From IMG/VR virus record IMGVR_UViG_3300028840_006732: 54,393 nt of DNA. One strand, given 5' to 3'. The notes under the pieces are model-generated. The model was not told where the DNA came from. It was given only the letters and a program-made list of their open reading frames with translations, and ran no database searches. Made by a program: the position numbers and the translations under genes. The first letter of the stretch is position 1, and each line of letters starts with the position of its first letter. The DNA comes from a virus. Lineage: Duplodnaviria; Heunggongvirae; Uroviricota; Caudoviricetes. This document shows positions 11,159 through 53,842 of the stretch, piece after piece.

Positions 11159-11639
11159 CCACCAGTGTGAGGACTCGGGTCCTCCGCCCGAACTGCCGGC
11201 CGATTTCGATTCGCCGAGATACTGGAAGAGCTACTTCGAGAACAAGTACGGAGAGCAGTGGCTCTGCTACTACGATCGCGACGAGAAGCAGCTCGTTGTC
11301 CGGGGCGGCGATTGCGGGTGGGAAAAGGTCTTGGAACCGTTCCGGATCTCCGTGGACACGCTTTGCAATTCGACTGCGGACGGGCTGGAACAGCAGTTCT
11401 TGTTGGCCGGGAAAGCCTTGGTTCCCCAGCTTATCGCGGGAGAACCTAAGGGGCTCATTACCGTCTGGATCGACAAGGAGCGCGGTACCGGGATCACGCT
11501 GAACTCCGGTGAGAACATCTGGCTCGATGCCTGCCTCGACGCCTGCGGATTCGACGTTCCGATGAAGAACGCAAAGGAGTTTGAGGAATACCTGGACAAG
11601 TGCCGGGCAATCGTCGGAGAAGAAGACGACGAGGACTAA
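11133..11639 (+). CDS. hypothetical protein (YFENxYGEQW motif)
   Basis: GTG 11133 behind AGGAG; 168 aa. Confidence 0.6.
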   Translation: MSILFSVNNHQCEDSGPPPELPADFDSPRYWKSYFENKYGEQWLCYYDRDEKQLVVRGGDCGWEKVLEPFRISVDTLCNSTADGLEQQFLLAGKALVPQLIAGEPKGLITVWIDKERGTGITLNSGENIWLDACLDACGFDVPMKNAKEFEEYLDKCRAIVGEEDDED

Positions 11640-11649
11640 GGAGCAGTCA

Positions 11650-12684
11650 ATGCAACAACCTATCGTCGTGGCTCACGGTGTCGGCCGAGACTCCACGGCG
11701 ATGCTGATTCGGATGTGGAAGCTCGGGCAACGGCCGGATGCCATCTTATTCGCGAACGTCGGCTCCGAGAAGCGGCAGACCTACGAGTTCATTCCCGTCT
11801 TCCGGGAGTGGCTCAAGAGCGTCGACTTTCCCCCGCTGACGATCGTGCAGTACGCGCCCAAGCTGGCGCCGTACTTCAGCCTCGAAGGCAACATGGTGCT
11901 CAACGCCACGTTACCCGGGGCGACCTTCAACCGCGGCTCCTGCACCCTGAAGTTCAAGGTGGAGCCGCAGAACAAGTGGACCAGGCACTGGGTTCCTGCT
12001 CAGCGTGCCTGGGAAGCGGGCCTCAAGGTCCGCAAGCTGATCGGTTTCGATTGCGACGAGGAATACCGGCAGTCCCGGGCGGCCGACAAGGCCCATAAGG
12101 GAGCCGGCTCCAAGGACGCCGAGCGATACGAATACGACCATCCGCTCATCGAGTGGGGCATGGGCCTGGAAGACTGCAAGGAGGAGATCGCCTCCGTAGG
12201 TCTGCCTGTGCCTTGCAAATCGGCCTGCTATTTCTGCCCCAACCAGAAGGAGCACGAGGTCGACGAACTGGACCCGGAAGACCGGTCCAGGATCATTCTG
12301 ATCGAGCTGGTCGCTGAGCCTTACAACCAGAAGGTTCACGGTTTGTGGCGGAGGCCGCGAAAGCGGGACAACCGCCCCGGGTCGATCACTCAATACATCT
12401 TGGAGCGCGAGCTTCCCTTCGTGCCTCTGCACGAGATCTGCTCCAAGGTGGTGCTCAACGAGCACTGCAAGAAGGTCAAGGTGGACGGCGAGTACACCTT
12501 CGATCCTCCGCATCAACCCGACACGCTTCGCAAGCTGCTGGAGTATCATGGCCACCGGCCCCCGGAGGTCGTGCTCCCCGGCAGCAACGGCGTGGACGTG
12601 CCTGGGATCTATCTCGAAGATGCTCGTAAGGCCCCTCAAGACGACGAGGATGAGCTGCACGAATACTTCGAGGGTGCACTGTAA
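11650..12684 (+). CDS. second adenine-nucleotide alpha-hydrolase / PAPS-reductase-like protein
   Basis: AHGVGRDSTAML (PP-loop variant), CTLKFK, GFDCDE, KSACYFCP. Confidence 0.75.
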   Translation: MQQPIVVAHGVGRDSTAMLIRMWKLGQRPDAILFANVGSEKRQTYEFIPVFREWLKSVDFPPLTIVQYAPKLAPYFSLEGNMVLNATLPGATFNRGSCTLKFKVEPQNKWTRHWVPAQRAWEAGLKVRKLIGFDCDEEYRQSRAADKAHKGAGSKDAERYEYDHPLIEWGMGLEDCKEEIASVGLPVPCKSACYFCPNQKEHEVDELDPEDRSRIILIELVAEPYNQKVHGLWRRPRKRDNRPGSITQYILERELPFVPLHEICSKVVLNEHCKKVKVDGEYTFDPPHQPDTLRKLLEYHGHRPPEVVLPGSNGVDVPGIYLEDARKAPQDDEDELHEYFEGAL

Positions 12685-29650: not shown

Positions 29651-30448
29651 ATGGCCGTGCGGATTGCCTTCGTCTGTCCCACGTACAAGGAGACAGAACT
29701 CCACGCTTACACGATGGCTTGCCTTCACTCTTTCTTCCAGCACACGAAAGACGGGCTGGCGATCGTGGTCGATGATGCCAGTACCGGCTGGACACAGGCA
29801 CTAGCCAAGAAGCTGGCCGACACCCCGATGTTCCCAGGTCAGCAGTGCGAGGTGCTTCGCTTCAAGAACTGGGGCGGCCTGACTCGCTCCTGGAATCTGG
29901 GGTTGAAGAAGGCCAGCGAGCTGAAGGCCGACTACGCAATCGCCGGCAACAACGACGTGCTCTTCACGCCCCGGTGGTACGAAGGGTTGATGCTGGCCTT
30001 GGAGCACGGCTACCACTTGGCGGGTCCGGTCTCCAACGCCCCGGGAATTACGGCCCAGGGGCTTGCCGAGGTCTGGCGGTACCATCCAAGCTACGAGGTC
30101 AAGGACGACCCCAACTATCTGAAGCAGGTGGCGGAGTACCTGCGAGGAGAACACGCGGGGACGTTGATCGAGGCCAAAGTCAATGGCTTCTTCCAGTTCG
30201 CGAGGATGCGAACCTGGGAGGCCGGCAAGTTCGACGCCGATCACTACTATCGGCCCCGCAACGACTTCAACAGCAAAGGGAAGCGCAATCCCACGCCGTT
30301 GATGACGCTCAACGAGGACGAGTTGCAGGGTCGGTGGCACAGGAAGGGCTGGAAGAGCGTAGTCGTTCCTTCCTCCTTCATCTTCCACTACCGGGCCGTG
30401 ACTCGCGGGAAGAAACATACCCAGGGTCGCTGGTTCCGGAAGAAATGA
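29651..30448 (+). CDS. family 2 glycosyltransferase
   Basis: IAFVCPTYK, IVVDDASTG, GLTRSWNLG, NNDVLF. Confidence 0.85.
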   Translation: MAVRIAFVCPTYKETELHAYTMACLHSFFQHTKDGLAIVVDDASTGWTQALAKKLADTPMFPGQQCEVLRFKNWGGLTRSWNLGLKKASELKADYAIAGNNDVLFTPRWYEGLMLALEHGYHLAGPVSNAPGITAQGLAEVWRYHPSYEVKDDPNYLKQVAEYLRGEHAGTLIEAKVNGFFQFARMRTWEAGKFDADHYYRPRNDFNSKGKRNPTPLMTLNEDELQGRWHRKGWKSVVVPSSFIFHYRAVTRGKKHTQGRWFRKK

Positions 30449-31152
30449 TCACCGTCTACACCTGCGTCACGGGCCGCTACGACGACCTCGTCTGGCCGCT
30501 CGAAGCCCAAGCCGTCAACGATCCGCAGGTGCGGTACATCTTCTTCGTGGACAACGTCCCCGAGGGCCACATCTGGGAGATGGCCAAGGCCAGAGGCTGG
30601 CAGTTCCAGGAGCTGGCGTGGAAGCATGAAGATCCCACCCGCAGCGCCCGCTTCCACAAGATCAACCCCGATCTGGTCCTGCCCGAGGATACGGAGATCT
30701 CCATCTGGATCGACGGCTCGCAACAGTTCAAGGACACTATTCATCCGCGGCGGTTGGCCACCAAGGCAACCGAGAAGGTCTCCATCGCCACCTTCCGCCA
30801 CCCCCTGCGGAGGTGCGTCTACGAGGAGGCCAAGGCCTGCGTGCAGCGGGAGAAGGACGATCCCGAAGTTATTCGCAGCCAGATGGCCCGCTATCGGGAG
30901 CAACTGTATCCTAGAAACAACGGGATGGTGGAAACGGCGTGTGTCATCCGCCGCCATGACAAGCTGGCGACGAGGTTCTGCGAGGCGTGGTGGCACGAGA
31001 TCAGCACGGGCAGTCGACGGGACCAACTGAGCTTCAACTTTGTACACTGGAGACTGGGCATCCCCTACGGGACCATTCCCGGCCACAGGGAGGATTCCCC
31101 GTTCTTCAACTTCCAGCACCACAGGCACATGCGTCGAAATGTCAAGCGTTAG
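30445..31152 (+). CDS. DUF616 (TOD1/MUCI70-like) glycosyltransferase
   Basis: VYTCVTGRYDDL, SIWIDGS, FRHPLRRCVYEE, GSRRDQLSFNF. Confidence 0.85.
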   Translation: MITVYTCVTGRYDDLVWPLEAQAVNDPQVRYIFFVDNVPEGHIWEMAKARGWQFQELAWKHEDPTRSARFHKINPDLVLPEDTEISIWIDGSQQFKDTIHPRRLATKATEKVSIATFRHPLRRCVYEEAKACVQREKDDPEVIRSQMARYREQLYPRNNGMVETACVIRRHDKLATRFCEAWWHEISTGSRRDQLSFNFVHWRLGIPYGTIPGHREDSPFFNFQHHRHMRRNVKR

Positions 31153-40243: not shown

Positions 40244-41126
40244 TCTCGACACGATCGAGGCGGAGCTGAAGAACCTCGACAAGCTCACGGCGATCCAGCA
40301 GGAGATGGTTTCCTACTGCACGTTCAACGTGCCCCGGAACATCGCCTTGGGAATCGTCGGCAGCAGCAACCTCTTGCTCTGCGAGGGGCTGTCGATGCGC
40401 TTTCCCATCAGCCCTGCGCAACTTCATCAGATGCCGCTGGAGATCTCGATCGCTCGTGTCGTGGGCACCGCGTCCAACGCGCACAAGTTCTACGAGACCT
40501 TCGGGAACATCACGCACACCGAGAAGATGATCATGGGGATCTCCTACCACGACGTCCCCTCGGTCAACCAGGTCCACGACGCCGGGCTGCGTCACAGCCT
40601 GGCGCATCTTCCCATGAAGAAGACGATGGCTTTCGTCCTGGACCGGCCCATCCTCACGCAGATCGGCATCCAGGCGGAGACCCCGGCGTGCAGGATCGAC
40701 TCCTTCGGAGACAACGACGGCAAGGACGTCGAGGTCCCGGAGTCGGCGAGGATGGCGATCGCCGAGAACGTCCACATGATGTGTCATCGGCCCCCGGTGT
40801 GGACGAACGACTACGACCCCGACAACATCCACCAGTTCTTCCGTACGATCCCCAGTGGGTTCGTCTACGACAACCTGGTCCGCCAGGCCAGGAATCGGCG
40901 GCTCTACCAGGACCACCGGGAGAGAGCCGCGGAAGAGGCCAGGGTCAAGGCCTACGCCGACAACAACAAGGACCTCTCCGCCTGGGAAGAGGCCAAGGTG
41001 GATCTCGACGATCCCAGCACCTATCCCGTGCCGGAAACAAGGAGGCACTTCGGCGATAACCCCGAGCCGCTGGCACCGAGGCCCAGCGACCCGCCCAAGA
41101 TCGGACCGAAGCCTCATCTCCTGTAA
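40125..41126 (+). CDS. exported protein with twin-arginine signal peptide
   Basis: MPSNPTRRSFLQTAMGSLAAALVPWTAEA: T-R-R-x-F-L, h-region, A-x-A site; AAGGGGA SD before ATG 40125. Confidence 0.75.
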   Translation: MPSNPTRRSFLQTAMGSLAAALVPWTAEATETTTSSPPIDLDTIEAELKNLDKLTAIQQEMVSYCTFNVPRNIALGIVGSSNLLLCEGLSMRFPISPAQLHQMPLEISIARVVGTASNAHKFYETFGNITHTEKMIMGISYHDVPSVNQVHDAGLRHSLAHLPMKKTMAFVLDRPILTQIGIQAETPACRIDSFGDNDGKDVEVPESARMAIAENVHMMCHRPPVWTNDYDPDNIHQFFRTIPSGFVYDNLVRQARNRRLYQDHRERAAEEARVKAYADNNKDLSAWEEAKVDLDDPSTYPVPETRRHFGDNPEPLAPRPSDPPKIGPKPHLL

Positions 41127-41551
41127 TGATTATCCGCATTACGAAAGACAGCCGGGGAATAGTGGCTGACTCCGACCTCCCCGGCTGTCCTCCGGTTGGA
41201 ATCGGCTATACTCCACACGAGGCGATCGGCATGTTGATCGCCCTGTTGGCCAGCGAGAACAAATGCTGGGCTGCTCACGGCGCCGACTTCATCATCGAGG
41301 ACAAGCGCGGCCAAATCTGCGAGTTCTGCGGCAAGAGCTTCCGCACCAAGAAGCAGCTAGGAGGGCATCTAAATTTCCAGCATCGCACGGTGGATTACAC
41401 CCGCCACGACATCTTTAGGGCGCTGGGGTACCGCCATGCGTCCAAGATGTCTCCCCGGCATAAACGAGATTTGTTCATCCTCTCCGGTATCTCGCGAACT
41501 GACGCCGAGAAGATGGCGGGGCTCAACAGCAAAGACTACCCGAAACAGTAG
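41126..41551 (+). CDS. HicB-like N-terminal domain fused to a classical C2H2 zinc finger
   Basis: IVADSDLPGC..GIGYTPHEA (HicB pattern); CEFCGKSFRTKKQLGGHLNFQH = C-x2-C-x3-F-x5-L-x2-H-x4-H. Confidence 0.65.
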   Translation: MIIRITKDSRGIVADSDLPGCPPVGIGYTPHEAIGMLIALLASENKCWAAHGADFIIEDKRGQICEFCGKSFRTKKQLGGHLNFQHRTVDYTRHDIFRALGYRHASKMSPRHKRDLFILSGISRTDAEKMAGLNSKDYPKQ

Positions 41552-46387: not shown

Positions 46388-47020
46388 ATGAAGGTATTCT
46401 GCGTTGGAGCCGGCCGCACGGGCAGCTTGTCCCTCTCGCTGGCCTTGAAGCGGCTGGGCTACAACGTGGCCGGCCAGGCCAAACGCTACGCCCTCATCCA
46501 AGACTGGGCCGTGCGGCGCTGGGGTCCGCTGCTGGAGCACTGCCGCACGGCCGAGGCCTTTCACGACGCCCCTTTCAGCCACCCCTTCACCTATGTGGTG
46601 TTGGACCAGGCGTTCCCATCGAGTAAGTTCATTCTCACGGTAAGGGACTGCTCCGCGCAGTGGTACAAGTCGCTGGTGGGCTTCCACTCCGTCCTCACTG
46701 CGGACGGCAAACGAACGCCCACGGCGGACGACTTGAAGGCTTTTGCCGGTGGCTGGTTGTACCGCACGGTGAAGATTCTCCGGGACGTACCGGACGACGA
46801 TCTCTACAACCGGGAGACGTGCATCCGCTACTATGAGCGCCACTGCGAGAGCGTCCGGGAGTATTTTCGTTTTCGCGAGGACCTGCTGGTGCTGAACGTG
46901 AGCGAGGAGGATGCCTTCCCCCGGCTCTGCCGGTTCCTGGACAAACCCGTCATCGAGGAGCCGTTCCCTCACACAAACTCCACCGCCGCTTGGCGAGATC
47001 ATATACAGGGGAAGCAATGA
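46388..47020 (+). CDS. sulfotransferase (Sulfotransfer_4-like, P-loop fold)
   Basis: KVFCVGAGRTGSLSL..AL..LG, DAPF, KFILTVRD...WY.S, LC.FL...PFPH.N. Confidence 0.85.
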   Translation: MKVFCVGAGRTGSLSLSLALKRLGYNVAGQAKRYALIQDWAVRRWGPLLEHCRTAEAFHDAPFSHPFTYVVLDQAFPSSKFILTVRDCSAQWYKSLVGFHSVLTADGKRTPTADDLKAFAGGWLYRTVKILRDVPDDDLYNRETCIRYYERHCESVREYFRFREDLLVLNVSEEDAFPRLCRFLDKPVIEEPFPHTNSTAAWRDHIQGKQ

Positions 47021-48597
47021 GCGCCGACGTCGACATCGTCATCATCTCCTGCGGCAAGCTGCCGCATCTCCGCAAGTTCACGCAGGGCGCCATCGCGAGC
47101 TGCCGAAAGTCGTCCGACAAGCTCATCTTCAACATCACCGTGGTCGAGACCCACGAGGACGGGGAGAAGGAGTACGAGGGAGCCGACCGCACGGTCTTCT
47201 GGGTGCCTTCGGACGGGCAGTTCAACTACAACCGCGTGCTGAACTTCGGCACCCACTTCGGCGATGCACCCTACGTGGTGCACGCCAACAACGACCTGCG
47301 ATTCCACCCGCACTGGGCGGAACGGCTGATCCAGACAATGCAGAAGTACAAGATCCGCAGCGTCTCTCCCCGCTGTCCCCGGCACGCCGAGCAGAAGAAG
47401 TTCCGCGGCCAGAAGGAGCCGGCCTACGGCTATGCGATCCGCCAGGAGATGTCCGGCTGGTGCGTGATGATGGAGAGGTCGCTCTGGCGTGAGCTGGGCG
47501 GTTTGTGGGAAGATGTGCCCTACTGGTACTCGGACGTGATGTACGTCGACCAGCTCCAGGCGGCCGACGTGAAGCATGCCCTGGTGCCGCTGAGCCTGGT
47601 GACGCACTGGGCCAACCGCACGACGCGGAAACTGCCCAAGGAGCCTCGCCGGGAGATGACCCAGGGCGCCAAGCCCCACTACCAGAAGGCCAAGAGAATC
47701 CGAGCCGCCACGATGACCAGCCCCTATGCCAACCTCGGCTTCGCCAAGGAGAACGTCCCCGGCAAGGAGCTGAGCACGCTGAAGATCGGCGGCCCCCTGC
47801 GTCATGTCCTCCGCCCCAACAACCTGGAGTCGCTGAAGAAGGCCTGCTTGCGGGCCGACGACCGCGACGACCCCGTCCTCATGCTGGGCGGCGGCAGCAA
47901 CATCCTCTTCCCCGACGAAGGCTGGCCCGGGCTGGTGATCCTCACCAAGGATCTCAGCCACTTCCACATGGAAAACAAGCTCGCCGTGGCCTGGCCGGGG
48001 CTGATGTACGCCAGCTTCCTCCGCCAGGCGGCCCTGCGCAACCTGGCCGGCGTGTTCCAGATCGCCCACGTGCCGGGGACGATGGGTGGCAGCGTGGTGA
48101 TGAACGCCGGTTTCGGCCCCACGGAGGGCAAGGACATCGCCAAGTACCTGGTCCGCGTGGAGGTCTTCAACCGCGAGAAAGCCAAGACGGTAACGCTCAC
48201 CAAGGAGCAGTGCCAGTTCGGCTACCGCACGAGCATCTTCCGCGGCCGTCCCGACCTGCTGGTGCTGCGGAGCTACTTCACCTTGCCGGCGATGGACCGC
48301 AAGGCTGCTGAGTCGACGATCGTCTCCTCCCAGAAGAGCGCTGCCAAGTTCATCCGGGCCTGCGGCCAGGGCTGTCCCAACGCCGGCAGCGTGTTCATTC
48401 ACACGAGCTACGACCCTCCCAAGGGCGTCAAGGGGATGAACCGGGGCGGCGCCTGCTGGTCGGAGACCAACCCCAACTGGATCAACAATCTCGGAGGAGC
48501 GACGGCCGCCGACGTCAAGTGGCTGATCGACGAGGCCAAGCGTCTCTGCAAGGAGCAAGGAAAACCGGAACCCGAATTGGAACTGATCGTGGTATGA
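47017..48597 (+). CDS. murB: fusion: family 2 glycosyltransferase + MurB-like FAD-dependent enolpyruvyl reductase
   Basis: N-half: VDIVIIS, FNYNRVLN, ANNDLRF, SGWC, WYSD. C-half (from about 47725): STLKIGG, LGGGSNILF, PGTMGGSVVMNAG, FGYRTSIF, PNAGSVF, NNLGGATAAD, ELELIVV. The symbol refers to the C-terminal domain only. Confidence 0.85.
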   Translation: MSADVDIVIISCGKLPHLRKFTQGAIASCRKSSDKLIFNITVVETHEDGEKEYEGADRTVFWVPSDGQFNYNRVLNFGTHFGDAPYVVHANNDLRFHPHWAERLIQTMQKYKIRSVSPRCPRHAEQKKFRGQKEPAYGYAIRQEMSGWCVMMERSLWRELGGLWEDVPYWYSDVMYVDQLQAADVKHALVPLSLVTHWANRTTRKLPKEPRREMTQGAKPHYQKAKRIRAATMTSPYANLGFAKENVPGKELSTLKIGGPLRHVLRPNNLESLKKACLRADDRDDPVLMLGGGSNILFPDEGWPGLVILTKDLSHFHMENKLAVAWPGLMYASFLRQAALRNLAGVFQIAHVPGTMGGSVVMNAGFGPTEGKDIAKYLVRVEVFNREKAKTVTLTKEQCQFGYRTSIFRGRPDLLVLRSYFTLPAMDRKAAESTIVSSQKSAAKFIRACGQGCPNAGSVFIHTSYDPPKGVKGMNRGGACWSETNPNWINNLGGATAADVKWLIDEAKRLCKEQGKPEPELELIVV

Positions 48598-49502
48598 AGA
48601 AGACTAAGCGTTGCGTCGAACTCTTGACCGTTGGCCTGTGGCACGACTCGGTGGGCGACATCGCCCTGATGCAGGCCACGGCCCAGCAGCTTTCCATCCG
48701 CGGCGTCCCCGTAATGTGCCGCAGCATCTCCACTGGAAGCCGGCCCTGCGTGGTGGGAGGCGGCTACCTGCTGTCGAACATCACCAGCGGCATGTGGAGC
48801 CACGTCCTAAGGCCCTTCCAGGTCCGCGGCGGCCACTTCCTCAACGCCGTGGGCGTGGGCGGCAGGGGAGACTACGGCTTCGTCGGGGACTGGAAGTATG
48901 TCTCCGTGCGTGACCATGTCAGCCGCGACTTCCTCGCCCCCTCGCTGCCCAAGGACAAGGAGATCCACCTCGTTCCCTGCCCGGCCGTGTTGTTGGAGGT
49001 GCCCAACGTCACCTACCTGCGGCGCTGTCCCGGCGGCGAGGTGATGAAGGATCTGCCGCTCCAGGGCTTCGTGGTCGTGGACTGCGAAGCGGAGTGGGCC
49101 CACGGCAAGATCAAGGAGCCGCTCTTGCCCCTGGACACGCGGCCCTGGATGAAGAAGGGCTGGCTGGGCAAGCCGCTGCGCAACCAGACGCGGTCCCCGG
49201 AGATGATGATGGGGATCATGAAGTGCGCCAAGGCGGTGATCACCGAGAGCCTTCACATGTCCATCATGGCGATGGCCGTTGGGGTGCCCTTCGTCGTCTC
49301 CGCCAGGGGAGGCACGGCTGCCAAGCCGGCCGCCTATTTCAAGCGGGCCGGCATCCCGGAGATCGTCGTCAAGCCCAACGCCAACATCGTCAACCAGGCT
49401 TTGGAGCTGCACACCAAGATGCTGGCGGTCCGCAAGCTGGAGCAGGATCGGGCCCGCAAGCATCTCGATGCCATGGTGGAGCTGATGGATGAGCCCGTTT
49501 GA
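48594..49502 (+). CDS. polysaccharide pyruvyl transferase family protein
   Basis: GLWHDSVGD.A, VVGGG, AVGVG, VSVRD..S, CPAVLL, ESLHMSIMA...GVP; ATGA-coupled to the GT2-MurB gene. Confidence 0.82.
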   Translation: MKKTKRCVELLTVGLWHDSVGDIALMQATAQQLSIRGVPVMCRSISTGSRPCVVGGGYLLSNITSGMWSHVLRPFQVRGGHFLNAVGVGGRGDYGFVGDWKYVSVRDHVSRDFLAPSLPKDKEIHLVPCPAVLLEVPNVTYLRRCPGGEVMKDLPLQGFVVVDCEAEWAHGKIKEPLLPLDTRPWMKKGWLGKPLRNQTRSPEMMMGIMKCAKAVITESLHMSIMAMAVGVPFVVSARGGTAAKPAAYFKRAGIPEIVVKPNANIVNQALELHTKMLAVRKLEQDRARKHLDAMVELMDEPV

Positions 49503-50313: not shown

Positions 50314-50964
50314 ATGTTCTTCTCCTACGCCCACAAGCTGCTGTTCGTCCATCCGCCCAAGTGCGGCGGCTCCTCGATCGCGCAGATCCTGGCCCGGGCC
50401 ACGGGGGCCAGGGAGAACGCCCTGGACATGGAGCCGGAGCTGCCCAAGCTCTGCTCCGTGAGGCTAAAGCACCTGCCCGCCAAGGCCATCAAGGAGCTGC
50501 TGCGCAACGACCCGCTCTGGGATGAGCTGTACATCTTCACCACGGCCCGCAACTCCTGGGCTCGCTTCGTCTCGCTCTACTTCCACCTGCGGGAGAAGGT
50601 GCCCAAGAACTTCGGCGGCACGCCGTTCCACCGGCAGTTCGTGGCGGACGCCCAGCGTTACGGTTTTCGTCACTGGCTGGACAAGTACCTGGGCGGCCCC
50701 TACTGCGAGTCATTGGCCTTCTACGTGATCGGGGAAGGGCGTAAGCTGTTGGTCGATCGGATCTTCCCCGAGCCTTGGAACGACGACGTCCGTAACGCTC
50801 TCAGGAGTCTGGGATTGAATACCCCGGCGCAGATGCCCGTGCTCAACCGGAGAAGGAAGAGCCGCAAGCACTACAGCGACTACTACAACACTCCACTTCG
50901 CCGCAAGGTCCGCAAGGCGTGTGCCTGGGAGATCGAGCGGTTTGGCTTCACTTTCGACGAGTGA
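50314..50964 (+). CDS. sulfotransferase (Sulfotransfer_2 / carbohydrate sulfotransferase-like)
   Basis: LFVHPPKCGGSSI (5'-PSB), FTTARNSWARFVSLY (3'-PB). Confidence 0.85.
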   Translation: MFFSYAHKLLFVHPPKCGGSSIAQILARATGARENALDMEPELPKLCSVRLKHLPAKAIKELLRNDPLWDELYIFTTARNSWARFVSLYFHLREKVPKNFGGTPFHRQFVADAQRYGFRHWLDKYLGGPYCESLAFYVIGEGRKLLVDRIFPEPWNDDVRNALRSLGLNTPAQMPVLNRRRKSRKHYSDYYNTPLRRKVRKACAWEIERFGFTFDE

Positions 50965-51441: not shown

Positions 51442-52068
51442 ATGAACAGACGTGACTTCATCATCAAGACGGCCGGTGCCGGTGCTTTGGCTGCGACCGG
51501 TCTCGGTTTCACCGGCAAGTCCGAGGCAAAGGAGGCTTCGCCGGCAGCTTCTTGCGTGGCCAAAGATGAGAGGCTGTACCCGTTCTCCGATGAGAGGCTG
51601 TACCTGCTCTCCAAGGCCGTCCTCCCGGAGGATATTAGCGTCCTGAAATCCCTCGGGTTGGACTTGACTTGGCAGGAGTGCAGGGCCTTGTGCCAGATGC
51701 TGCCAGACCCGCACGCCTTCTTCGCTGGCTCGCGGAAGTGTGTGGATTACCTCCGGAGCTGCCAGCATGCCGAGGCGCGTCATCTCGGGTGCCGTACGCT
51801 TCGTGAGCGTCGGAGCGATACTGAACTGTCGCCTACGGTTTCCCAGGACGTCCTCGGGATCTCCGTGCAGGATGACATCGACGCCGTCCTGGCTCTCGGC
51901 CCGTCCGCGGGCTTCGCGAGGATGCTCGTCCCGCTGGCGAAGTCGTTGGCGGCCCACATCCACGAGAACAAGAGGATCGTGGCGCTTGTGCGCCCCCAGC
52001 TCTATTTCGCGCGGGAGGCTTTCTTGGTGACTGTCGCTTGCTACCAGGTGGTCGCTTACGATGAGTAA
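51442..52068 (+). CDS. exported protein with twin-arginine signal peptide
   Basis: MNRRDFIIKTAGAGALAATGLGFTGKSEA; AGGAGG SD. Confidence 0.75.
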   Translation: MNRRDFIIKTAGAGALAATGLGFTGKSEAKEASPAASCVAKDERLYPFSDERLYLLSKAVLPEDISVLKSLGLDLTWQECRALCQMLPDPHAFFAGSRKCVDYLRSCQHAEARHLGCRTLRERRSDTELSPTVSQDVLGISVQDDIDAVLALGPSAGFARMLVPLAKSLAAHIHENKRIVALVRPQLYFAREAFLVTVACYQVVAYDE

Positions 52069-52639
52069 GGACCGAGAGATCCAGAAACGCCTGGCCCTGC
52101 ACGCCCAGAAGCTGCCCAGCCAGGCCAAGCTGCTGATGGGCGAGGGGAGCTACGGCTCTCCGGCCCTGCGGGGCCGACTGAGCACGGTGCGGATCGGCAA
52201 ATACTGCTCGATCGCCGACAACGTGACCTTCGATGCCGGGGAGAACCACAACACCGGCAACATCAGCACCTATCCCTTCAACATCCTCTTTCCCGCGGAG
52301 TGCGGGCACATCAAGACCCACCCGGTGACCAAGGGCGACATCACCGTGGGCCACGACGTCTGGATCGCCGCCGGGGCCTACATCCTGGGCGGCGTGGTCG
52401 TCGGCCACGGGGCGGTGATTGGAGGCCGTGCCGTGGTCTCCCGCAACGTGGAGCCCTACGCCGTGGCCGTGGGCAATCCGGCCCGCACGGTCGGCTACCG
52501 CTTCAGCCCCGAGGACATCGAGAAGCTCCTCATGCTCAAGTGGTGGGACTGGCCCCGAGCCAAGATCCTCAAGCATGTCGAGCTGCTGATGTCCGGCAAC
52601 GTGGACGCCCTGATCCGTGCCTCACGAAAGAAGAAGTGA
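52061..52639 (+). CDS. left-handed beta-helix O-acetyltransferase (CatB/Vat-related)
   Basis: IGKYCSIA, ISTYPF, KGDITVGHDVWI, GNPAR, LKWWDWP. Confidence 0.88.
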   Translation: MSKDREIQKRLALHAQKLPSQAKLLMGEGSYGSPALRGRLSTVRIGKYCSIADNVTFDAGENHNTGNISTYPFNILFPAECGHIKTHPVTKGDITVGHDVWIAAGAYILGGVVVGHGAVIGGRAVVSRNVEPYAVAVGNPARTVGYRFSPEDIEKLLMLKWWDWPRAKILKHVELLMSGNVDALIRASRKKK

Positions 52640-53181
52640 TGAGTTTTTCCTACAGCCTCCGCAAGGAGCACATCGCAGAAATCCTCGGGCTGACGGACGA
52701 AGCCGGCGGCGACGAGACGGTGGTCAACACCGTCAACGTCCGCCTGGAGCAGATGTTCCGCCAGGAGATCGACGCCACGCCCGAGCTGGTGATGCTGCAT
52801 GGGGAGGACCTGGAGAAGCTCGCCAACTGGTCCCCGGCATGGCGAGGCCGGGGCAAGCGGATCGAGACCCAAGAGTTTCCCGTCAAGCGGGCGGACGGCC
52901 TCACTCGCAGGCTGATGACCAACCTCAACGCCGCGCCGGGTATGCTGGCCGAGCAGCTCCGGCAGACGGGCCGTTTCATCTTCTGCCACTCTCCGATCCT
53001 CGACGTGAATCGCGAGGCCGGCTACCCTATTCTGAAGATCTGGATGCGCGTGATCTTCGCCCCCGAAGAACTGGACCCGGAGCCCGACAATGAAGATCCT
53101 GGTGGTGCTGCCGGCGAGGAAGGGCAGCAAGAGCGTTCTCGACAAGAACGTGATGATGTTGAATGGGAGAAGGGTCTTTGA
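52639..53181 (+). CDS. hypothetical protein
   Basis: 180 aa, coupled to the acetyltransferase stop. Confidence 0.6.
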   Translation: MSFSYSLRKEHIAEILGLTDEAGGDETVVNTVNVRLEQMFRQEIDATPELVMLHGEDLEKLANWSPAWRGRGKRIETQEFPVKRADGLTRRLMTNLNAAPGMLAEQLRQTGRFIFCHSPILDVNREAGYPILKIWMRVIFAPEELDPEPDNEDPGGAAGEEGQQERSRQERDDVEWEKGL

Positions 53182-53842
53182 GTACGTGCTCGACGACCTC
53201 GATCTCAGCGTGTACCGCGGCAAGATGACGATCGTGGCCAGCACGGACAGTGGGGCGTATCGCGAGCTGTTCATGAAGGCTGGCGTGGAGACGATTGGCC
53301 GTCCCGCAGCGCTGGCCACCGACACGGCGCCGACGCTGCCTGTGCTGTGGAACGTCCTGCCCCGGATGGAGAAGCGCTGCGGCCACCGGTTCGACGCTGT
53401 GATGGACATCTATCCGTGCTGCCCTATTCGTCCTCGGGGCTTCATCGACAAGGTGATCGACCTCTGGAAGAAGGAGCCGCGCTACAGCATCATGCCGGTG
53501 CTGCCCTGCCCGCAGAGGTTTCATCCCACCCTGGCCGTGCCCATCGACGACAACGGCCAGCTTCACTACGTCATACCTTACGGCGATCAGGCGAAGCAGG
53601 CGTATCGCCTGTCTGTCTACCTGGCCGGTGGCGCCGGCTTCCTCATCCCCAGGCAGAATTTCGACATCTACCCCAACCCTTCACCGCCCGGGGATGCCCA
53701 CCTGGGTTTCGGGGAGCGGAAGGGGATCGTAGTCGATCCCTCCCGCTTTGTGGACATCGACAGCCCGGAGGACGTGCGTCGAGCGATTGCGCTGCTCCTA
53801 AGAGGGAAGGCCCTGGGAGTCTGCGATGCGCCTACCGACTAG
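53090..53842 (+). CDS. CMP-nonulosonic-acid synthetase (NeuA/PseF/LegF-type cytidylyltransferase)
   Basis: LPARKGSKSVLDKN, VASTD, RPAALATD, VDIDSPED. Confidence 0.85.
   Translation: MKILVVLPARKGSKSVLDKNVMMLNGRRVFEYVLDDLDLSVYRGKMTIVASTDSGAYRELFMKAGVETIGRPAALATDTAPTLPVLWNVLPRMEKRCGHRFDAVMDIYPCCPIRPRGFIDKVIDLWKKEPRYSIMPVLPCPQRFHPTLAVPIDDNGQLHYVIPYGDQAKQAYRLSVYLAGGAGFLIPRQNFDIYPNPSPPGDAHLGFGERKGIVVDPSRFVDIDSPEDVRRAIALLLRGKALGVCDAPTD

Follow-up and report, generated by a model that had tools for sequence, protein, structure and literature searches.

A phage gene joining a glycosyltransferase to a MurB-like reductase, coupled to a polysaccharide pyruvyl transferase gene: a candidate route to lactyl-ether glycans

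Lactyl (1-carboxyethyl) ethers have been known for decades in bacterial O antigens, capsules and cyanobacterial slimes; to our knowledge, the enzymes that form them in bacterial polysaccharides have never been shown in vitro. In MurB, the reductase of the peptidoglycan pathway, an Arg, a Ser or Thr, and a Glu polarise and protonate the enolpyruvyl carboxylate. Lactyl-ether sugars are established in E. coli O58, O69, O124, O146 and O150 and in Shigella antigens, and genetics links them to dedicated genes, wfeP among them (PMC7685785). The pgl locus of Campylobacter holds a pyruvyl-transferase gene whose occurrence correlates with that of a 234-Da sugar, for which the identity glucolactilic acid has been proposed (bioRxiv 10.64898/2026.05.23.727390). 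Here we describe a 54,393-nucleotide stretch (the window; one strand, 5' to 3') of the roughly 236-kb genome of an uncultured tailed jumbo phage (IMG/VR record IMGVR_UViG_3300028840_006732). In it, one gene joins a glycosyltransferase (GT) to a MurB-like flavoreductase and is coupled to a gene of the polysaccharide pyruvyl transferase family PF04230. In bacteria, the members of the MurB-like clade to which the reductase belongs adjoin PF04230 genes wherever their context could be read.

The open reading frame (ORF) at 47017-48597 on the plus strand runs uninterrupted for 526 codons and comprises a GT-A domain and a MurB-fold flavoreductase. An ATGA overlap joins it to the PF04230 gene downstream, giving three core features.

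47017..47712, plus strand: GT-A glycosyltransferase domain of the fusion, residues 1-232 (phrog_22332, E 6.5e-33)
47713..48597, plus strand: MurB-like reductase domain of the fusion, predicted to bind flavin adenine dinucleotide (FAD), residues 233-526 (assigned by Pfam, NCBIfam, fold, tree and signatures)
48594..49502, plus strand: polysaccharide pyruvyl transferase, P0002 (PF04230, 59.4 bits against a cutoff of 25.3, E 6.8e-16)

An earlier note on this DNA, made from the letters alone, had described a single unbroken frame from a GT domain into a MurB domain, followed by an ATGA-coupled pyruvyl transferase gene. Both observations are borne out, the former by the frame itself and by Pfam and PHROG matches to the two halves, the latter by the PF04230 score. 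The note had also raised the objection that the fusion might be an assembly artefact. This is ruled out, because the same protein is found in four independent assemblies: it is identical on three contigs (JGI, 236 kb; ENA, 174 kb; Logan, 30 kb) and has one residue changed on a fourth (42 kb). Across 17.4 kb, two of these loci match the window with 99.8-99.97% identity, and the GC content at third codon positions (GC3) is uniform, with 0.91 in the GT half, 0.91 in the MurB half and 0.90 in the next gene.

The MurB half, from about residue 240 to 526, matches FAD_binding_4 (4.2e-11) and MurB_C (7.1e-6). The NCBIfam equivalogs for murB are not reached, with 145.4 bits against 259 for NF010480 and 129.5 against 144.5 for TIGR00179. 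The motifs listed in the earlier note are all present: GGGSN at 291-295, PG..GG...MNAG as PGTMGGSVVMNAG at 353-365, YRTS at 403-406, AGSVF at 456-460 and a C-terminal glutamate, Glu522. The altered substrate-side motifs are present too. NPNW at 485-488 replaces the canonical HANF, and the segment after GSVF has 12 residues, where canonical MurB proteins have a median of 18 and a minimum of 17. An AlphaFold 2 model of the domain has a mean predicted local distance difference test score (pLDDT) of 95.4. Compared with the type II MurB structures 4PYT, 1HSK and 3TX1, a check proposed in the note, it gives template modelling (TM) scores of 0.80-0.86 (4PYT, 0.86; 1HSK, 0.83), that is, a predicted MurB fold.

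The closest free-standing relatives of this domain fall into two alignment groups. The canonical group carries R...KQP, PSAGS.FKNP, a long AG.LI...GLKG loop and KHANF, and its members P0129 and P0132 follow murC in cell-wall clusters. The second, MurB-like group has PNAG(S/T), no QP, a loop about 7 residues shorter, (K/R)T.NW replacing KHANF, a 3-residue insert after NAG and a P.P.LE tail. In a maximum-likelihood tree, the phage domain groups with 27 MurB-like proteins in one clade inside type II MurB, with support from an ultrafast bootstrap (UFboot) value of 100 and a Shimodaira-Hasegawa-like approximate likelihood ratio test (SH-aLRT) value of 99; in a quick tree the SH-aLRT for the same grouping was 97. 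Within the clade, the phage domain is a long-branched sister to the other 27 members (98/85). It shares both clade indels: the segment after NAG has 9 residues (clade median 9, canonical median 6), and the short loop after GS.F is close to the clade median of 11. Judged by the tree and the alignments, the MurB part of the fusion is not a housekeeping MurB and is the basal member of a distinct MurB-like clade. By the same comparison, NPNW and the shortened loop mark the clade as a whole and are not peculiarities of the phage. The separation also shows in the scores from 401 sampled Omnitrophota genomes, which are clearly bimodal: three exceed 330 bits and none of the others passes 242. One Omnitrophota genome (G001) holds a canonical murB (167 bits) together with a paralogue (358 bits).

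To see which residues set the clade apart, we compared 27 clade sequences with 90 canonical type II sequences column by column. All 19 columns conserved at 90% or more in both groups, which serve FAD binding and catalysis, are kept by the phage domain; they include GGGSN, PG..GG...NAG, Arg404, Ser406, Gly457-Ser458, Phe460 and Glu522. Ser458 aligns with Ser238 of the S. aureus enzyme in the alignment with its PDB structure. Six canonical hallmarks, in contrast, are missing from the phage domain, namely His485 (100% of the 90 canonical sequences), Pro450 (90%), Phe488 (88%), Gly351, Leu519 and Ser455; the phage has Asn485, Gly450 and Trp488 at the first three of these sites. The segments conserved in canonical MurB only (R...KQP, FKNP and the AG.LI loop) contact the uridine diphosphate (UDP) or UDP-N-acetylglucosamine (UDP-GlcNAc) part of the substrate. 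As aligned, the FAD-binding and catalytic residues are retained, and the changes fall in these canonical-only, substrate-side segments.

The gene context of the clade is strikingly uniform. A PF04230 gene adjoins all 12 distinct clade loci with readable context, which come from at least 7 bacterial phyla and the phage. Clade loci in genome contigs were retrieved with a two-motif DNA pattern. The 12 are the phage, three Omnitrophota, two metagenome contigs and six further labelled genomes or metagenome-assembled genomes (MAGs): Alcaligenaceae, Thermodesulfobacteriota, Bryobacteraceae, Verrucomicrobiales, Nostocales cyanobacterium LEGE 11386 (contig JADEXK010000005) and Planctomycetaceae ih15. 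A further relative, P0125, sits on a short contig (L003) with no gene context. The pair occurs in both gene orders, often with overlapping stop and start codons, and its neighbours are polysaccharide genes (nucleoside diphosphate (NDP)-sugar epimerases, glycosyltransferases and methyltransferases). The arrangements are illustrated by the following loci.

Omnitrophota MAG JBDRAN01: MurB-like gene, then pyruvyl transferase gene, with a 4-nt overlap
Two metagenome contigs: pyruvyl transferase gene first, among genes for NDP-sugar epimerases, GT47, GT64 and methyltransferases
Verrucomicrobiales locus: MurB-like and PF04230 genes in divergent orientation
Thermodesulfobacteriota MAG JAXHVD010000030 (L072:2050-6502): sulfotransferase, PF04230, MurB-like and sulfotransferase genes
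Planctomycetaceae ih15 (L080): chromosome carrying the MurB-like/PF04230 pair

The Thermodesulfobacteriota order mirrors the phage operon, in which sulfotransferase genes also flank the pair, and suggests that sulfation and lactylation repeatedly go together in glycans. In contrast with the clade, none of about 60 loci with a canonical-scoring murB (27 from Omnitrophota, 21 from the same DNA pattern, 10 from IMG/VR and two dcw-context genes) has a PF04230 gene nearby. Co-occurrence with PF04230, which the earlier note had asked about for GT2-MurB fusions, is a property of the clade, 12 of 12 loci against 0 of about 60. The profile scan of IMG/VR gave canonical-scoring MurB genes only, none with a pyruvyl-transferase neighbour. 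The motif pattern and the pyruvyl-transferase profile retrieved nothing there, so that at this stringency neither the present phage nor a relative bearing the module was recovered from the collection searched.

The reductase/PF04230 module occurs widely among bacteria and so does not represent a new category. The GT fusion is the sole feature unique to the phage; together with the setting among sulfation genes, it makes the phage locus a novel form of the module. The note had found the domain fusion unfamiliar, and the architecture search agrees, with no counterpart among 1.84-5.8 billion proteins. In a word-indexed search of 5.8 billion clusters, matches covered one half or the other and never both. 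An exhaustive phmmer search of 1.84 billion representatives, in which a two-half match would rank directly below the query, gave no protein matching both. No phage record covers 80% or more of the fusion protein. The clade profile, run against longer proteins, found no GT-MurB and no PF04230-MurB fusion; the longer proteins with MurB that it did find were MurC-MurB, Ddl-MurB and YfhO-MurB, at canonical scores. The last of these, P0279-P0284 (1121-1166 residues, from several metagenomes), join a YfhO-type membrane glycosylation protein (PF09586) to a complete MurB domain, an architecture unfamiliar to us. At the phage junction, the internal Met233 aligns with the start Met of free-standing relatives, a position that fits the loss of a former gene boundary. 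An out-of-frame TGA overlaps the Met233 codon as ATGA, and as a relic of that boundary it is anecdotal, because the alternative frame is open for only 18 codons. When the two domains were folded as separate models, the C-terminal helix of the GT ended at about residue 234 and the MurB fold began at about 238, so almost no linker would be left between them.

The GT domain itself, residues 1 to about 232, belongs to the phage glycosyltransferase family phrog_22332, and its match to PF00535 is weak (15.9 bits, under the gathering cutoff of 23.3). The AlphaFold 2 model predicts a GT-A fold (pLDDT 94.8), for which Foldseek returned ppGalNAc-T2 and SpsA as top matches (1e-10 to 1e-9). The family-invariant N76, D93, W148 and H197 are all kept, and N91-N92-D93 forms the NND metal/donor motif. 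In its relatives, the domain is often joined to a further glycan-building or tailoring module (a second GT2, GT25, GT47, TylF or Methyltransf_24). The closest relatives in isolated phages are actinophage glycosyltransferases with 34-38% identity, the nearest homologue lying within gp17 of mycobacteriophage LittleE. In LittleE (NC_042322.1:10667-15064), four GT genes and a gene with a Ser/Thr-kinase domain lie between the major capsid and head-tail connector genes.

The pyruvyl transferase P0002 is 36% identical over its full length (2e-49) to the partner of an Omnitrophota MurB-like gene, and the two loci have the same gene order and the same 4-nt overlap. Its SLH(M/L)SI motif contains His221, and this His is invariant in 8 relatives of P0002. 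BLAST does not link P0002 to the partner transferases of the other clade members, which are too distant, so the reductase has been paired with several PF04230 lineages. A complex prediction for the MurB-like domain and the pyruvyl transferase scored 0.00 and, run with no controls, is evidence neither way. One locus in a 61-kb Logan contig (SRR19514074) has a pyruvyl transferase gene, its product 37% identical to P0002, that overlaps the end of a gene for a 650-residue GT2 protein. The locus contains 14 or more genes for glycosyltransferases, methyltransferases and epimerases, all in the same direction, and lacks a MurB-like gene. It may be a ketal-forming counterpart of the phage module.

We favour, with a probability of roughly 0.6, the reading that the three activities (GT, PF04230 and MurB-like) constitute a glycan-building and tailoring unit, which makes a lactyl ether on a phage-made glycan and not on a cell-wall precursor. 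A MurB-type reductase that always stands beside a transferase dependent on phosphoenolpyruvate (PEP) in polysaccharide loci would most simply reduce the enolpyruvyl ether made by that transferase. In the mechanism we propose, the GT-A domain would transfer a sugar to a growing acceptor, probably, by analogy with the actinophage glycosyltransferases, a glycan on a phage or host surface protein. The PF04230 enzyme would then move the enolpyruvyl (carboxyvinyl) group from PEP to a sugar hydroxyl. The fused MurB-like domain, its FAD reduced by nicotinamide adenine dinucleotide phosphate (NADPH), would reduce the vinyl ether to the 1-carboxyethyl (lactyl) ether with no ketal closure, a step modelled on MurB acting on enolpyruvyl-UDP-GlcNAc. 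The flanking sulfotransferases and an acetyltransferase would decorate the same glycan further. We place sugar transfer before enolpyruvylation and reduction because of the actinophage GT homologues and because mycobacteriophage capsid and tail-tube proteins are known to be glycosylated (Freeman et al. 2023, as summarised in PMC12619734). The earlier note had proposed that the pair installs and then reduces a pyruvyl group. Comparative genomics strongly supports this install-and-reduce pairing, which is however not specific to the phage, being widespread in bacteria. The note had also called the chemistry unfamiliar; lactyl-ether sugars themselves have been known for a long time as a decoration (PMC7685785). 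No paper in the literature searched assigns a MurB homologue to lactyl-ether synthesis.

Several observations weigh against this reading. The chemistry, the order of the steps, the acceptor and the lactyl-ether product are all things that we infer. The phage domain is the most divergent member of its clade, with a long branch and 6 of 13 signature residues shared (PNAGS, ..NW, P519 and others make up the set); most of the other positions hold neither the clade nor the canonical residue. Position 485 is Asn in the phage domain and Thr in the clade, and many clade members have Thr in place of the catalytic Ser. Not all of the closest relatives of P0002 are coupled to MurB-like genes: P0276 follows a 650-residue GT2 protein, and for P0273 and P0274 the 1.5 kb downstream contain no MurB-like gene. 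The upstream tail of locus L051 bears a vague likeness to a MurB-like C-terminus that is not significant. Uncoupled relatives of P0002 are to be expected if most PF04230 enzymes make ketals. The characterised PF04230 enzymes all make ketals (PMC6801904, PMC10435577), and in the literature searched neither a protein of the MurB-like clade nor any of the partner pyruvyl transferases has been assayed.

The same enzymes might work in a different order, with the transferase and the MurB-like domain making a nucleotide-activated lactyl sugar that the fused GT then transfers, and with the fusion channelling product from reductase to transferase. MurA and MurB do work on a UDP-sugar, fusions often join consecutive steps, and the linker between the predicted folds is very short. 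The clade, however, has lost or shortened the R...KQP, FKNP and AG.LI segments, which contact the UDP moiety, and cellular loci contain the MurB-like/PF04230 pair without the GT family of the phage. A review of E. coli O antigens does speak of 'synthesis of UDP-D-GlcpLA' by wfeP (PMC7685785), whereas the characterised PF04230 enzymes use lipid- or glycan-linked sugars and not nucleotide sugars (PMC10435577, PMC6801904). We regard this order of events as unlikely, though it deserves to be kept in view. It is also conceivable that the two chemistries are not linked, the pyruvyl transferase making an ordinary pyruvate ketal and the flavoprotein acting in a separate redox reaction whose substrate, perhaps another enol ether or an unsaturated acid, belongs to the glycan or to a sugar precursor. 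The substrate-side residues of the clade differ from those of MurB, and close pyruvyl-transferase relatives with no MurB-like neighbour exist, as would be expected if the two steps were separate. But adjacency in 12 of 12 loci, often with overlapping stop and start codons and with either gene first, points to a common substrate, and the Arg, Ser/Thr and Glu that handle the enolpyruvyl carboxylate in MurB are invariant across the clade. Although all assayed PF04230 enzymes form ketals (PMC6801904), we consider separate chemistries improbable.

The earlier note had offered an auxiliary peptidoglycan-precursor enzyme as its alternative, and two further explanations of the fusion have to be set beside the lactyl-ether reading. 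A genuine UDP-N-acetylenolpyruvoylglucosamine reductase that boosts the supply of host precursors during infection would account for the MurB fold, for the presence of the catalytic Arg, Ser and Glu, for murB equivalogs being the best NCBIfam matches, and for an identity to canonical MurB (32-38%) as high as that with clade members. This role is nevertheless disfavoured, because both relevant equivalog cutoffs are missed, His485 and Pro450 (and with them Gly351, Leu519 and Phe488) of canonical type II MurB are missing, and the gene context is of another kind: the domain is fused to a glycosyltransferase, set between sulfotransferases and placed by the tree (100/99) inside a PF04230-associated clade. 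In addition, no MurA/EPSP-synthase-type protein or other mur gene was found among the large ORFs of the window that were scanned, as the note had said of MurA. We think such a role very improbable. Just as little credence can be given to a decaying or inert fusion, in which loss of a stop codon joined two genes by chance and one half is dead. The uniqueness of the architecture in the databases searched, and Met233 with its out-of-frame TGA where free-standing relatives start, are what such an accident would leave behind. Yet every family-invariant residue is kept in both halves, both are predicted with a pLDDT of about 95, GC3 is equally high (0.91) in the two, and the protein recurs, identical or with one residue different, in four assemblies from different samples.

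The lactyl-ether reading also takes in the genes around the fusion. Across the window the GC content is 59-67%, the genes are nearly all co-directional, and phage-type genes are present (a UvsX-like recombinase, thymidylate synthase and topoisomerase). Megablast with 24 kb of the window as query found nothing in 50,697 phage records. Besides the three core features, the glycan operon contains the following genes, and no promoter-like and no convincing terminator-like site interrupts the block.

46388..47020, plus strand: sulfotransferase of the type using 3'-phosphoadenosine 5'-phosphosulfate (PAPS), Sulfotransfer_4 (PF17784, E 1.2e-28); also called in the homologous loci L001 and L002
49489..50312, plus strand: two small ORFs of 171 and 109 residues with no assigned function, called in L001 and L002; no Pfam, PHROG or NCBIfam match
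50314..50964, plus strand: second sulfotransferase-like gene (phrog_3347, galactose-3-O-sulfotransferase, E 7.8e-7; weak Sulfotransfer_2 match, 0.003)
51442..52068, plus strand: 208-residue protein with a twin-arginine signal (TIGR01409, 20.2 bits against a cutoff of 16.7)
52061..52639, plus strand: hexapeptide-repeat O-acetyltransferase (PF00132, E 2.4e-11; Vat/CatB-like and WcaF-like NCBIfam matches, all below cutoff)
53153..53842, plus strand: possible nonulosonic-acid cytidylyltransferase, a weak match (TIGR03584, PseF, E 4.8e-6, 26 bits against a cutoff of 206); no Pfam match at 0.05

The stop codon of the first sulfotransferase gene overlaps the ATG of the fusion gene as ATGA in the junction sequence. 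The twin-arginine signal of the 208-residue protein suggests that some products of the operon may be exported. Just past the end of the window lies a gene for an RmlC-like deoxythymidine diphosphate (dTDP)-sugar isomerase (L001:21377-21581), and together with the PseF-like gene it suggests that the phage may make its own activated sugars too. Elsewhere in the window, the same phage carries a PAPS-reductase-like gene at 11581-12684 on the plus strand (phrog_424, 6.6e-20), which may bear on PAPS or sulfur handling during infection. Two other genes on the plus strand stand out. A 435-residue protein (29845-31152) has a TOD1/MUCI70 glycosyltransferase-like domain (PF04765, 3.6e-18), a family known mainly from plants and other eukaryotes. 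A 141-residue protein (41126-41551) has a match to a classical C2H2 zinc finger (PF13894 and PF00096, 1e-4 to 1e-3, below cutoff), which is unusual in a phage.

The strict coupling of a MurB paralogue to PF04230 offers a directly testable candidate pair for the missing enzymology of lactyl ethers. We tentatively suggest that the lactyl-ether reductase still missing for many bacterial polysaccharides is to be found in the MurB-like clade, working with a subset of PF04230 enzymes that transfer the enolpyruvyl group and do not form ketals, and that the phage, having fused the reductase to a glycosyltransferase, coats its own or its host's surface with a sulfated, lactylated, muramic-acid-like glycan. 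If so, this would be a type of viral glycan not described so far, and some PF04230 enzymes taken for ketal transferases would release enol ethers. Clade members annotated as UDP-N-acetylmuramate dehydrogenase are probably mis-annotated, which matters when peptidoglycan synthesis is inferred from genomes. Glycosyl transfer, predicted lactyl-ether formation, a pair of sulfotransferases and an acetyltransferase, all in one operon, point to complex anionic glycans that the phage would make while infecting its host, and these could affect adsorption, the evasion of immunity or defence, or the remodelling of the host surface.

Comparison with known systems places the phage module between several of them. 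With the MurA/MurB pathway it shares the fold, the FAD motifs and the catalytic Arg, Ser and Glu of the reductase, and the same logic is proposed, from a PEP-derived enol ether through a flavin hydride to a lactyl ether. The donor enzymes differ, MurA having the MurA/EPSP-synthase fold whereas the proposed donor in the phage is the PF04230 protein. The reductases differ as well: that of the phage belongs to a paralogous clade without the His of KHANF, the QP motif and about 7 residues of the loop, has the 3-residue insert after NAG, and stands in a polysaccharide-gene context fused to a GT, whereas canonical MurB is found in a dcw or mur context. Set beside the ketal-forming PF04230 enzymes CsaB, Pvg1p, WcaK and GumL, P0002 is a clear member of the same family and keeps the invariant His of an SLH motif. 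A His binds PEP in CsaB and Pvg1p (PMC10435577), and His221 of P0002 is likened here to His308 of CsaB by motif and not by direct alignment. In those enzymes, which lack a reductase partner, the adduct closes to a 4,6-ketal or one like it. The phage PF04230 gene is translationally coupled to a MurB-like reductase gene, which suggests that the enol ether is intercepted before the ketal forms. The glycosyltransferases of mycobacteriophage LittleE (gp15-gp21) and Gordonia phage Keelan (gp122) resemble the phage GT domain, but these actinophage GT blocks have neither a MurB-like domain nor a PF04230 partner. The same predicted class of product is found with the glycolactilic-acid genes of enterobacteria, wfeP and its partner, in E. 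coli O124/O164, Shigella dysenteriae 3 and S. boydii 17 (PMC7685785). There a dedicated gene pair adds the lactic-acid ether to a sugar of the surface polysaccharide, and relative to the wfeP-type pair the phage system adds the GT fusion and the sulfotransferases.

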